From positions 6,899 through 70,898 of the forward strand of contig CAYXZA010000001.1 of NCBI GenBank assembly GCA_964469605.1: a stretch of DNA of 64,000 nucleotides, given 5' to 3'. The DNA is from an uncultured Candidatus Saccharibacteria bacterium (GTDB lineage: Bacteria; Patescibacteriota; Minisyncoccia; Phycocordibacterales; DATDWN01). How positions within the stretch are numbered: the first letter of the stretch is position 1; each line of letters starts with the position of its first letter. Under the pieces are notes generated by a model. The model saw only the letters and a list, made by a program, of their open reading frames with translations, was not told where the DNA came from and searched no databases. Position numbers and translations under genes: made by a program. Of the stretch, positions 53,805 to 56,308 are shown in pieces.

Positions 53805-53877
53805 GCGCGATTAGCTCAGTTGGTAGAGCAACCCGTTTACACCGGGAAGGTCATAGGTTCGAGTCCTGTATCGCGCA
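53805..53877 (+). tRNA. tRNA-Val (anticodon TAC)
   Basis: GCGCGATTAGCTCAGTTGGTAGAGC-A-ACCCG-TTTACAC-CGGGA-AGGTC-ATAGGTTCGAGTCCTGT-ATCGCGC-A. Confidence 0.85.
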
Positions 53878-53926
53878 CCTTAAACGAACTAAACGGCTTT
53901 GAAAAAGCCGTTTAGTTCGTTTAAGG
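53878..53926. repeat. Near-perfect 23 bp-stem palindrome between tRNA-Val and the left TIR
   Basis: ccttaaacgaactaaacggcttt-gaaaa-agccgtttagttcgtttaagg. Confidence 0.7.
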
Positions 53927-54124
53927 TGCATTTATATTACCAAATCCGAACCTATTTTGAAAATCTATAAAATGGATGAATTTTTGCGAAATATATTTTC
54001 TAGGGAAAGGATTCGCAAAAATTCGGCTAGTGTTTTCTGAAATGTGGACTCGCCCGCCCGCAGAAAGGGGTCTGGGGAATGAATGCGGGCGGGTTTCGGG
54101 TTTTTTGTTTTTGGCGAGGCGGGC
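53925..54124 (+). repeat. Left terminal inverted repeat
   Basis: See the element above. Contains the GC hairpin cccgcccgca...tgcgggcggg. Confidence 0.7.
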
Positions 54125-54508
54125 TTCAAAAGAACTTGCAAAATACCGAATCGTATACTATCATACCCGTATGAGTTTTTCAGTTAAATTTTCCGCAAAT
54201 TACTATTATACCCGCCCTGTGGGACGGTCTTCTTTTTGTTAACTGATTTTTACTAAAAACAGAGCACAAAAGACCGCCCCAAAGGCGGTCTTTTGTTTAT
54301 TACTTACACATTATGATTCTAAAAAAATTACAAACAAATAGCATTTATTATTACGGCTCTTTGCAAGAGACTTGTTTCAAGGTGCCGAAATAATTTTTTT
54401 AAAATTTCGACTCCTCCAACTGGTCTCTTGCGAGACCAGTTTTTATTTGGGTGAAGGAATCTACCCATGCAAGTGATTCCAAAATAGTTCTTTAAAAAGG
54501 AGGAGACC

Positions 54509-55036
54509 ATGAATAAAAAAGTGGTTCTCTTGGCAGGCTTACCTGGTGTGGGTAAGTCAACTCTGGCGCGAAAGATTGCCAACAAAGAGTGTGGCTTGGT
54601 TTTGGACATTGACGAAATTAAAAGAAAGATTGTCGATCCAAAACTCGTCACGTCAACCATTGACCCACCGGAAGTTAGGTGGCGATGTTACGAGGAAGCC
54701 GCGGAAAAGGTTTTCTTTCTCCTTGAAAAAGGAGCGTCTACAATTATTATGGACGAGGTATTTCATTTGGCGATTCTCCGCCAAAAACTGGAAGAACTTT
54801 TCCTTCAAAAAGGAATTGAAGTTTTCTGGTTGGAAGTACGTTGCTCACATGTCGAGGTTGAGCGACGGCTTCGTGAGAAATCTCGAAATGGACATATTCT
54901 CTCGACAGATGAGGCGTTGAAAATGAATCTTCTTTTCGAGGGAATCTTCGAAAGATTTCCTGAAGGAAAGAAAAATCATATCATCTTCAGAAATGAAGCT
55001 GGTTGTGATTTTGAAAAATTGGCATTCAACCCTTAA
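54509..55036 (+). CDS. P-loop NTPase kinase (AAA_33 / polynucleotide-kinase / zeta-toxin-like fold)
   Basis: Walker A VVLLAGLPGVGKSTLARKIA near the N-terminus, a DE Walker-B-like IIMDEVF, and a lid-like RRLREKSRNGH. It is preceded by a canonical SD (aaaaaggaggagaccATG). Confidence 0.6.
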   Translation: MNKKVVLLAGLPGVGKSTLARKIANKECGLVLDIDEIKRKIVDPKLVTSTIDPPEVRWRCYEEAAEKVFFLLEKGASTIIMDEVFHLAILRQKLEELFLQKGIEVFWLEVRCSHVEVERRLREKSRNGHILSTDEALKMNLLFEGIFERFPEGKKNHIIFRNEAGCDFEKLAFNP

Positions 55037-55045
55037 ATGGGTATT

Positions 55046-55088
55046 GAGGGTTGGTGCAGTGGAAACTTGCACCAACCCTCTTTTGTTG
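55046..55088 (+). terminator. Rho-independent terminator after the kinase gene
   Basis: gagggttggtgca-gtggaaact-tgcaccaaccctc followed by ttttgttg. Confidence 0.55.
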
Positions 55089-55126
55089 AATAAAATCTGA
55101 ATTACTAATATAATAAAAATATTCTT

Positions 55127-55840
55127 ATGACTAATACATTACAAAAAATCAAAAATCTTGCTCTAAAAATAGATAACGATATTGCTTTTGGTGGAAAGTC
55201 AAAAGGTAATAAGCATTTGCTTAGAGTTGTTAAGGTGGCAAAATTTCTCGCACAAAAAACTGGAGCAGATTTGTTTATAAGTATAGCTGGAGCGTATTTA
55301 CACGATACTGCCTTACCCTCTGGAAATGACTACAATTACAAAAATAATAAAGAAATAGTAAAAGATTTACTCAAATCTTTTACTATTTCCAAAAAAGAGC
55401 TAGATGGAATAGCGGAGTGCGTGGCTTCTCATGAAGGTACATTTAAGCCAAAAAGTTTAGAAGCAAAAGTTGTTCATGATTCAGATGTTCTTGAAAAAAC
55501 TGGATTATTGGGGATTATTCGTCACACATGGAAATTAACCAATTCGGGAAAGATTAATCATAAAAATATAACGGATAAAGATGTCAAATTAGTTATTGAC
55601 CATATAGATTGGCGTAGAAAAAAATTACAAACACCTATTGCAAAAAAGATTGCAAAATTTTTAACAATACCAATAAATAAAGAGAAAGCAAAAATCATTG
55701 TATCAATATCATCAGAATTAGCTTTCAATAGTGTTGTCACTGAAAAAATAGCTGTAGCTTTACGAAAACATTTAAACAAAAAAGAAAATGAAAAGCTCAA
55801 AGAGCAATTAAATTTAGCTTATTTGAATAAGTTTAAATAA
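55127..55840 (+). CDS. HD-domain metal-dependent phosphohydrolase
   Basis: Full HD pattern: H (NKHLLRV), HD (AYLHDTALP), H (VASHEGTF), H...D (VVHDSDVLEKTG). Confidence 0.7.
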   Translation: MTNTLQKIKNLALKIDNDIAFGGKSKGNKHLLRVVKVAKFLAQKTGADLFISIAGAYLHDTALPSGNDYNYKNNKEIVKDLLKSFTISKKELDGIAECVASHEGTFKPKSLEAKVVHDSDVLEKTGLLGIIRHTWKLTNSGKINHKNITDKDVKLVIDHIDWRRKKLQTPIAKKIAKFLTIPINKEKAKIIVSISSELAFNSVVTEKIAVALRKHLNKKENEKLKEQLNLAYLNKFK

Positions 55841-56038
55841 GCCCGCCTCGCCAAAAACAAAAACCCGAAGCCTGCGCGCATTCCTCCCCAGACCCCTCCT
55901 CCGCGCGGGCGAGTCCGAATTTCAAAAACAGATTAGCCGAATTTTTACGAATCCTTTCCCCAGAAAATATATTTCGCAAAAATTCGTCCATTTTATAGAT
56001 TTTCAAAATAGGTTCGGATTTGGTAATATAAATGCACC
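55841..56038 (-). repeat. Right terminal inverted repeat
   Basis: Reverse complement of the left TIR with scattered mismatches. Confidence 0.7.
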
Positions 56039-56236
56039 AGAATAGAACTTAACGATTTAGAACCTATTTGCAACTCTCGGAGGGAAATCTTCCACAAGTA
56101 AAACTTTTTCGTCAAAAAGTTTTCTCGTGTCCACGACTCGCGACCTAGCTTGCTAGCTGGGTACCCCGCTCCGTCTTTCGATTCCCTCTCGTAAAGCTCC
56201 ACTTTACTCTCGGCACAAAACAGCTTTGCAATTTTG

Positions 56237-56308
56237 TGCTCTCGGAGGGAATCGAACCCCCATCAAGGCCTTAGAAGAGCCCTGCTCTATCCATTGAGCT
56301 ACGAGAGC
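56237..56308 (-). tRNA. tRNA-Arg (anticodon TCT)
   Basis: Reverse complement GCTCTCG-TA-GCTC-AATGGATA-GAGC-A-GGGCT-CTTCTAA-GGCCT-TGAT-GGGGG-TTCGATT-CCCTC-CGAGAGC-A. Confidence 0.75.

Follow-up and report, generated by a model that had tools for sequence, protein, structure and literature searches.

An inverted-repeat-bounded kinase–HD cassette between two tRNA genes of a Candidatus Saccharibacteria contig: a member of an apparently undescribed cassette family of the Patescibacteria associated with a large serine recombinase

Members of the Candidate Phyla Radiation (CPR, Patescibacteria) are ultra-small bacteria with tiny genomes, for which, to our knowledge, few gene-exchange vehicles are known. 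Cassettes moved by a site-specific recombinase are nevertheless known in kind. The staphylococcal cassette chromosome (SCC) has large serine recombinases (LSRs; CcrAB or CcrC) as its movers, variable cargo such as metal resistance, inverted-repeat ends and site-specific insertion beside a conserved gene, and it also occurs as recombinase-less cassettes (ccr-less pseudo-SCC). Integrons combine promiscuous cassettes, each with its own recombination site, with a separate recombinase platform; the segments switched by serine invertases (Gin and the Mu G segment, Hin, Pin) are bounded by inverted sites, with the recombinase gene just outside; and miniature inverted-repeat transposable elements (MITEs) and other non-autonomous transposons have terminal inverted repeats, no internal enzyme and mobilisation in trans. 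The tycheposons of Prochlorococcus are cargo-carrying integrative elements at tRNA genes of streamlined genomes, a minority of them with an LSR, which leave partial tRNA copies behind and bring "plug-in" accessory cargo (10.1101/2020.12.28.424599). Likenesses to each of these systems are found in the cassette family described here, one copy of which lies in a 64,000-nt stretch of contig CAYXZA010000001.1 from an uncultured Candidatus Saccharibacteria bacterium; "the window" denotes this whole stretch, and positions refer to it. At 53925-56038, between tRNA-Val and tRNA-Arg, inverted arms enclose genes for a P-loop kinase and an HD-domain phosphohydrolase. We read this segment as intact but non-autonomous, one of a CPR-wide family whose cassettes carry accessory genes, are bounded by inverted arms and are exchanged on the basis of an LSR, and we put the probability of this reading at roughly 0.6.

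The two tRNA genes are convergent, so that both 3′ ends point toward the element: tRNA-Val(tac) occupies 53805-53879 on the plus strand (ARAGORN; 67.7 bits in Rfam) and tRNA-Arg(tct) 56236-56308 on the minus strand (ARAGORN and Rfam). A first-pass annotation of the window had placed a kinase and an HD gene between them, within inverted repeats of about 200 bp and about 90% identity, and this description held. The arms, at 53909-54126 (plus strand) and 55839-56054 (minus strand), are about 218 nt long and align over 219 columns with 89% identity (blastn, E 6.5e-76); by blastn they are the only two copies in the window. From its outer end inward, the left arm is composed of a tail resembling the T sequence introduced below, a core site C (53925-53961, GGTGCATTTATATTACCAAATCCGAACCTATTTTGAA), hairpin 1 (53978-54024), hairpin 2 (54052-54093, with loop GGGGTCTGGGGA) with a following T-run, and the inner end GGCGAGGCGGGCTT. 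The right arm carries C on the minus strand at 56002-56038. Both copies of C are intact and face inward at a spacing of 2.1 kb (nhmmer E 5e-12 at 53925 on the plus strand and 2.5e-12 at 56039 on the minus strand), and the arms run inward from them with GC-rich hairpins; alignment of the two arms revealed a compensatory C/G swap in hairpin 2. C is the part that is conserved family-wide and may represent an LSR half-site.

No recombinase or transposase was encoded within the segment (open reading frame (ORF) list and Pfam), as the first-pass annotation had also found, and no LSR was detected anywhere in the window by tblastn with five family LSRs, the best match (E 0.007) falling on the arm itself. 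The copy in the window is therefore non-autonomous. A GC content well above the flanks had been claimed for the segment as a whole; this applied to the arms (0.43-0.45) and the kinase gene (0.42) but not to the HD gene (0.29), with 0.36 in the leader of the cargo, 0.24-0.29 in the flanks and 0.31 over the window. Searches against Rfam at gathering and at permissive thresholds returned only the tRNAs, the remaining matches being far under their cut-offs. Two candidate explanations of the arm sequence were discarded: a structured RNA, with unconvincing folding z-scores of -2.0 and -1.15 against shuffled sequences, and a small ORF, in which a frameshift separates the two arms after 22 codons.

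Beyond the contig of the window, conservation at the DNA level was confined to about 37 nt at the outer end of the arm, that is, to C. A 22-mer from within it (ACCAAATCCGAACCTATTTTGA), located at 53939-53960 in the left arm and also present in the right one, was matched exactly by at least 120 metagenome contigs and by 42 contigs of metagenome-assembled genomes (MAGs), the latter labelled Saccharibacteria, Gottesman-, Roizman-, Blackburn-, Magasanik-, Kerfeld-, Veblen-, Lipton-, Zambryski-, Portnoy- and Sungbacteria and Minisyncoccia. Family loci were gathered through this exact match, and in the resulting consensus, tgGtGC.tTTaT...ACCAAATCCGAACCTATTTTGAacg.AA.TgAc (182 instances, 148 distinct), the 22 search positions are conserved by construction while the flanking positions are free of that bias. 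The search for further copies of the terminal repeat, which the first-pass annotation had proposed, thereby yielded a family with unrelated cargo in which the outer 37 nt are shared by at least 160 public contigs, drawn from many CPR lineages. A profile search of the loci identified 23 inward-facing pairs of C, taken as a core of 37-48 nt, spaced 1.7-4.9 kb, along with many single C matches at contig ends, as repeats would give.

In the C pairs that were read, the cargo was unrelated from cassette to cassette and included SMODS plus Cap15 (CBASS) with TaqI-type restriction-modification, DruA with a HerA-like ATPase, ArsR/ArsA, ArsR with an ArsP permease and thioredoxins, a serpin, an SDH-type protease and a solute-binding protein. 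No target-site duplication was present at any of the 14 fully read pairs (the window and 13 others). Three scans of viral contigs for sequence patterns, the 22-mer among them, gave no match, and neither did a search of PLSDB with the arm. We found no description of this cassette family in the literature, with subscription journals outside coverage; the family is large and apparently so far undescribed. Read as its reverse complement (...AGGTTCGGATTTGGTnnnATAAAnGCACCA), C resembles an inverted tRNA end from T-arm to CCA, with which it shares GGTTCG and GCACCA; this is a resemblance and not demonstrated mimicry. The idea that C is a foldable tRNA remnant was rejected, as ARAGORN called no tRNA over C and the T-stem positions are unpaired.

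A few peculiarities of individual family members may be recorded here. In locus L068 (406-4395), a CBASS pair, consisting of a SMODS cyclase and a Cap15 effector, and a TaqI-type endonuclease lie within one cassette, and the methyltransferase of the TaqI system carries fused LexA (DNA-binding) and S24 peptidase domains. A GC-rich hairpin with a G-tract loop (e.g., GGAAGGGGGTTGGGGGGAAGGAA) was present in 57 out of 131 distinct family arms; the loop is found both ways round, G-rich in 25 and C-rich in 32, next to a 5′ stem arm that remains G-rich. In the hairpins of the window (54052-54093 and 55870-55911) it is the stem arms that are swapped instead of the loop. Seven contigs of CPR type with respect to C, T and LSR (L126, L129, L138, L147, L150, L162 and L164) bear Hydrogenedentota or Gammaproteobacteria MAG labels, probably owing to mis-binning or mislabelling.

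Clustering of all ORFs from the loci revealed one sole recurrent neighbour of C, a protein of 510-560 aa with Resolvase, Recombinase and Zn_ribbon_recom domains. Among named models, CcrB (NCBIfam, E 8e-38) and XisF come closest to it, both far under cut-off; it is at most 28% identical to the phage or plasmid recombinases in the collections searched, and 74-86% identical between MAGs labelled Saccharibacteria, Liptonbacteria and Blackburnbacteria. In about 30 loci, the start codon of this LSR is located 200-214 nt from C, on its outer side, with transcription directed away from C. The final ~75 nt of this ORF recur as an inverted copy upstream of the gene; this sequence, termed T, gives the unit 78-nt terminal inverted repeats. 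The complete T′-LSR′-T unit measures 1668-1802 nt (about 1.7 kb) and codes for the LSR alone. A CRISPR repeat or omega-RNA scaffold beside C was considered and rejected, as the conserved outer flank turned out to consist of the 3′ terminus of the LSR ORF plus an inverted copy of it.

The junctions of this unit follow a precise pattern. At 24 distinct loci, the end proximal to the LSR 3′ terminus adjoins a tRNA gene exactly after its CCA (tRNA...NCCA followed directly by GTATCAAACTTTC), with eight tRNA species represented (Gly, Val, Leu, Lys, Arg, Glu, Ile and Thr), and the opposite end adjoins C; in a few loci, C is found at both ends. On its two sides, the unit is flanked by 5-mers that are inverted copies of one another and change together, reading GCTCC...GGAGC in all eight units at tRNA-Gly and NCACC...GGTGN in 12/12. 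In the 151 distinct contexts where the outer flank of C could be read, C was adjoined by T plus LSR in 35, by an LSR-less T′T palindrome in 7, by T alone in 9, by a codirectional LSR 3′ end in 7, by a tRNA end in 18 and by other sequence in 75. Cassettes with an LSR unit on either side were also observed (L038, L140, L142 and L154). Nearly perfect mirror symmetry was noted in L038 (1-5638; LSR′-T-C-cargo-C′-T′-LSR) and in L106 (1-2353; C′-T′T...T′T-C), which is either a real arrangement or a fold-back assembly artefact.

With this pattern at hand, both flanks of the cassette in the window can be interpreted. On the left, the order is tRNA-Val, palindrome, C. The palindrome (53875-53929), described earlier as near-perfect with a 23-bp stem and correctly located at the tRNA-Val tail, is in fact perfect, with arms of 26 nt (53875-53900 and 53904-53929) that are 100% complementary around a 3-nt loop; it begins 5 nt inside tRNA-Val and links the tRNA 3′ end (GCACC) to the first bases of C (GGTGC). 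Canonical T′T palindromes occupy the equivalent position between tRNA and C in L139/L131 and L126, and shorter palindromes do so in L147, L048 and L117; that of the window is not an oddity, as it stands where LSR-less T′T palindromes are expected. On the right, the minus strand reads tRNA-Arg, a segment of about 150 nt, a displaced copy of the tRNA 3′ end, about 35 nt and C. The displaced tRNA-Arg copy (CTCTCGGAGGGAA) lies at 56074-56086 and is repeated at 56239-56251, the ~150-nt segment (within 56074-56235) contains an inverted partial tRNA copy, and the stretch next to C (56039-56073) is a candidate T-arm remnant, its final 17 bases on the minus strand reading ...AAGTTCTATTCTGGTGC compared with the canonical ...AAGTTTAATTCTGGTGC (15/17 positions, by eye). 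Both the palindrome and the right flank have the appearance of decayed T arms; the simplest history would be one in which LSR units stood on both sides of the cassette and both later decayed.

The layout with a displaced tRNA-Arg end is host-conserved, since it was also found in L165, a relative that lacks the cassette. In the window (56074-56251), in L165 (3596-3780), in L007 and in L037, a stretch of 150-230 nt behind a tRNA gene closes with the 3′ end of that tRNA repeated directly, and also contains part of its T-arm and acceptor in inverted form; such a layout might stem from recombination, as a scar, or represent a very small integrated element.

Comparison with relatives indicated that the cassette is not a fixed part of this locus. 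In the closest relative available (L165, UppS 76% identical), and also in L166, synteny is kept on both sides, and the interval between tRNA-Arg and tRNA-Val contains an ABC-F ATPase gene, without C and without arms; in L165, tRNA-Arg is followed by a segment of about 170 nt bounded by direct repeats. The comparison of this interval in relatives, as suggested by the first-pass annotation, thus established that the arms are absent there but did not provide a clean empty site, the nearest relative having another gene at the locus. As a side observation, the ABC-F gene (L165 3835-5493, L166 3-980) ends 8 nt from the tRNA-Val 3′ end and itself lies between convergent tRNA 3′ ends. Other copies of the kinase–HD unit are in different states. 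In L170 (HD protein 83% identical), homology with the window runs to 56031, the outer edge of C, beyond which comes tRNA-Ala; L171 (80%) has its own 101-nt inverted repeat, corresponding to the inner arm only; in L173 (91%), one arm survives over 70 nt and the second over 18 nt; and in L172 (73%) and L174 (67%), the arms are absent. Among the copies seen, only that of the window has both C sites intact around the kinase–HD unit. These observations support the view that the cassette is not fixed at the tRNA-Val/tRNA-Arg locus and occurs with arms, eroded, in other contexts.

As the C family is associated with LSR units, the window contains no LSR and the cassette is not fixed at its locus, the notion of a non-autonomous cassette moved in trans is supported. 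This retains one part of the first-pass annotation, which had proposed a non-autonomous, MITE-like element mobilised in trans; its mechanism is not MITE-like because target-site duplications are missing. The mover is probably an LSR and not a transposase. From the junctions, we infer a scheme in which the LSR would bind T and C; the joined T ends would serve as an attP-like site, and a tRNA 3′ end abutting C, or C′ abutting C, as its attB-like counterpart with dyad symmetry. Through conservative recombination at such sites, LSR units would be inserted and removed with no target duplication, and recombination between the sites flanking a cassette would excise, capture or invert it. In the window, the left LSR unit would have decayed to the 55-nt palindrome and the right one to the ~35-nt T remnant beside the displaced tRNA-Arg fragment. 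Because both flanking LSR units appear decayed, further movement of this cassette would require an LSR in trans.

Several observations weigh against this interpretation. The 75 contexts with other sequence, out of 151, have no adjoining LSR, T or tRNA, and sampling through the 22-mer leaves LSR units without C outside the sample. Product junctions predicted by the scheme (T joined to T′, or C′ to C) were absent from the 162 fetched loci, and these sequence data nowhere demonstrate action of the LSR on C or T. The likeness of C to a tRNA end is limited to two short motifs with a spacing 4 nt longer than in tRNA. By eye, the palindrome of the window is about 58% like canonical T, and a T profile scored neither flank of the window, that is, neither the palindrome nor the right side. 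Lastly, most homologues of the kinase–HD pair are without arms.

A broader proposal, which we advance only tentatively and hold to be somewhat less probable than its alternatives combined, is that of a CPR-wide system of cassette exchange, in which an LSR-only unit docks at tRNA CCA ends, cassettes are bordered by inverted mimics of tRNA 3′ ends, and defence or resistance genes are excised, captured, inverted and passed between distant lineages; it would be integron-like in function and LSR-based in mechanism. Within this proposal, each cassette border would recreate the docking site, because the cassettes bear the inverted mimics at both borders. If this is true, the family would be a CPR-wide route for defence systems, metal-resistance and other accessory genes, given the invariant 22-nt site and LSRs 74-86% identical across contigs labelled as Saccharibacteria and as lineages of Microgenomates type and Parcubacteria type. 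A 1.7-kb recombinase-only unit with 78-nt inverted ends is an unusual minimal mobile element, and a cassette-borne site resembling a tRNA 3′ end is likewise unusual. The family LSRs, with their predictable candidate att sites, may be of practical interest for genome engineering, and C pairs could serve annotation by flagging accessory islands in CPR genomes.

While cassettes moved by a site-specific recombinase are the kind to which this family belongs, SCC, tycheposons, Gin-type segments and integrons each fail on defining features. In SCC, the target is rlmH, whereas the CPR targets are tRNA CCA ends and the tRNA-end-like site on the cassette; the LSR of the CPR family is placed outside the cassette, in its own unit, the cassettes have no flanking direct repeats and the hosts are CPR bacteria. 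The same position of the LSR gene, outside the C pair and missing from the window, sets the family apart from any phage- or SCC-type LSR element, in which the LSR lies inside. Tycheposons mostly have internal tyrosine recombinases and often replication modules, with no conserved inverted core and no recombinase-only unit (10.1101/2020.12.28.424599). The Gin, Hin and Pin systems rely on small serine recombinases, sites of about 26 bp and a fixed cargo and locus, in contrast to the LSR, variable cargo, many contexts and long arms of the CPR family. Integrons depend on the tyrosine recombinase IntI, single-stranded attC hairpins, directional arrays and a common promoter, none of which is found here. 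MITEs, finally, differ from the element of the window, which has no target-site duplication and 1.7 kb of coding cargo and whose associated enzyme is a site-specific recombinase.

The inverted orientation of the sites, and a recombinase gene just outside the segment as with gin beside the Mu G segment, could also be understood if the arms were crossover sites for inversion in place, mediated by the LSR or by RecA acting on 200-280-nt repeats, which would switch the orientation or expression of the cargo. Indeed, the same cassette was found in opposite orientations relative to the same flank in L009/L087 and in L068/L054 (100% and 99.9% identity). However, these opposite orientations in sister samples may reflect ambiguity of short-read assembly over 280-nt perfect repeats, a caveat that applies to LSR-based exchange as well, and three other comparisons showed the same orientation. 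Since the genes of the window carry their own promoter-like sites and terminators, orientation should matter little. Moreover, inversion in place leaves the unrelated cargo, the varied contexts, the absence at the orthologous locus and the spread across lineages unexplained. As to the Gin/Hin type in particular, no small serine invertase of about 190 aa is adjacent; the associated enzyme is an LSR of 510-560 aa, itself missing from the window. We consider inversion in place unlikely. More doubtful still is that the arms are host insulator or terminator modules of tRNA-locus islands, with the cassettes not moved by the LSR and the LSR units only using C as a target. Hairpin 2 with its T-run points inward in both arms, the compensatory stem change and the varying stems around a conserved loop suggest selection on the hairpin, and half of the C contexts lack LSR and T; yet the arms are GC-rich in low-GC hosts, the 22-nt core is identical between lineages, unlike regulatory sequence, homology between cassette copies stops at the outer edge of C, the arms erode where the cassette seems fixed, and the whole arms do not fold convincingly better than shuffles. 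Long terminal inverted repeats, an enzyme-free interior and many copies across genomes would also suit a non-autonomous transposon of DDE type, either a MITE with cargo or a composite, with its transposase elsewhere. With no target-site duplication at the 14 fully read pairs, no transposase family recurring beside C, where the LSR alone recurs, and tRNA-end junctions exact to the nucleotide, this is very improbable; a MITE, in addition, would be expected to be small, non-coding and present in many near-identical copies, while here there is one copy of 2.1 kb with two genes in the 64 kb covered. The LSR-based cassette reading is thus the one we retain.

The cargo raises an alternative of its own, namely that the kinase and the HD protein form a module for RNA end-healing or anti-phage defence (5′-OH kinase plus 2′,3′-cyclic phosphodiesterase) acting on the neighbouring tRNAs, functions that the first-pass annotation had put forward. 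The kinase (54509-55036, plus strand, 175 aa) matches Pfam AAA_33 (E 4.8e-13), and the HD protein (55127-55840, plus strand, 237 aa) matches Pfam HD (E 6.8e-10) and NCBIfam PRK10119. In favour of a role on RNA, the best PDB match of the kinase profile is the tRNA-dependent kinase PSTK (E 2e-6) and kinase domains of PNKP are among the fold matches, while defence systems are carried by other cassettes of the family. However, the kinase model (pLDDT 90) has a generic small P-loop kinase fold, its Foldseek matches being dominated by sugar and nucleotide kinases (gluconate kinase, the kinase domain of 6PF2K and adenylate kinases), with PNKP lower down; the HD protein (pLDDT 94) is nearest to lp_2664, YpgQ and YedJ by PDB profile and Foldseek; PADLOC matched the kinase weakly, through its P-loop, and the HD protein not at all, with no match at the level of a system; and no ligase, Hen1 partner or third gene is present in the segment. 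Furthermore, the pair is conserved at 60-90% identity in numerous Parcubacteria, for the most part with no arms around it and not near these tRNAs, and a PP2C-like protein can take the place of the HD partner. Neither the repair nor the defence assignment was borne out, and we regard such a module as improbable. Cargo annotation with PADLOC, NCBIfam, PDB profiles and Foldseek reached a P-loop kinase and a YpgQ/YedJ-like HD protein and no further; with low confidence, the two may constitute a module for phosphorylation and dephosphorylation of a small molecule or nucleotide.

Homologues of the kinase and the HD protein coincided on equal-sized contigs in at least 20 cases and were adjacent in 5 further loci that were read, and on these grounds they constitute a conserved Parcubacterial gene pair. 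In L167 (4076-4819) and L168 (6613-7362), a PP2C/SpoIIE-like protein follows the kinase homologue in the place of the HD protein; because the genes downstream, TyrRS and PDT, are alike in L167 (with the PP2C-like protein) and in L172 (with the HD protein), the phosphohydrolase partner seems to be interchangeable. Expression signals of the cargo comprise a leader on the plus strand (54127-54508) with two hairpins and a Shine-Dalgarno (SD) sequence (aaaaaggaggagaccATG, 54494-54511) ahead of the kinase gene. The SD sequence and terminators announced by the first-pass annotation are accordingly recognisable, the latter as terminator-like hairpins at three sites: a bidirectional one in the leader (54266-54296, consensus scan), an attenuator-like one, AACTGGTCTCTTGCGAGACCAG with a T-run, also in the leader (54418-54441), and one 3′ of the kinase gene (55046-55080, by consensus scan only). 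A promoter-like TTGAAT-17-TATAAT (55086-55114), likewise from the consensus scan only, precedes the HD gene. The 5′ leader of the kinase gene is conserved in the five loci compared (window 54340-54508; L170 4640-4814; L171 4622-4798; L172 5245-5379; L167 3320-3444), with two compensatory base pairs in the leader hairpin, in L172 and L167, and no match in Rfam, and is a candidate attenuator or riboswitch. Finally, protein P0251 (375 aa) joins a Sua5/YciO/YrdC domain (PF01300) to an HD domain 84% identical to that of the window, which represents either a real fusion or a merged gene call.

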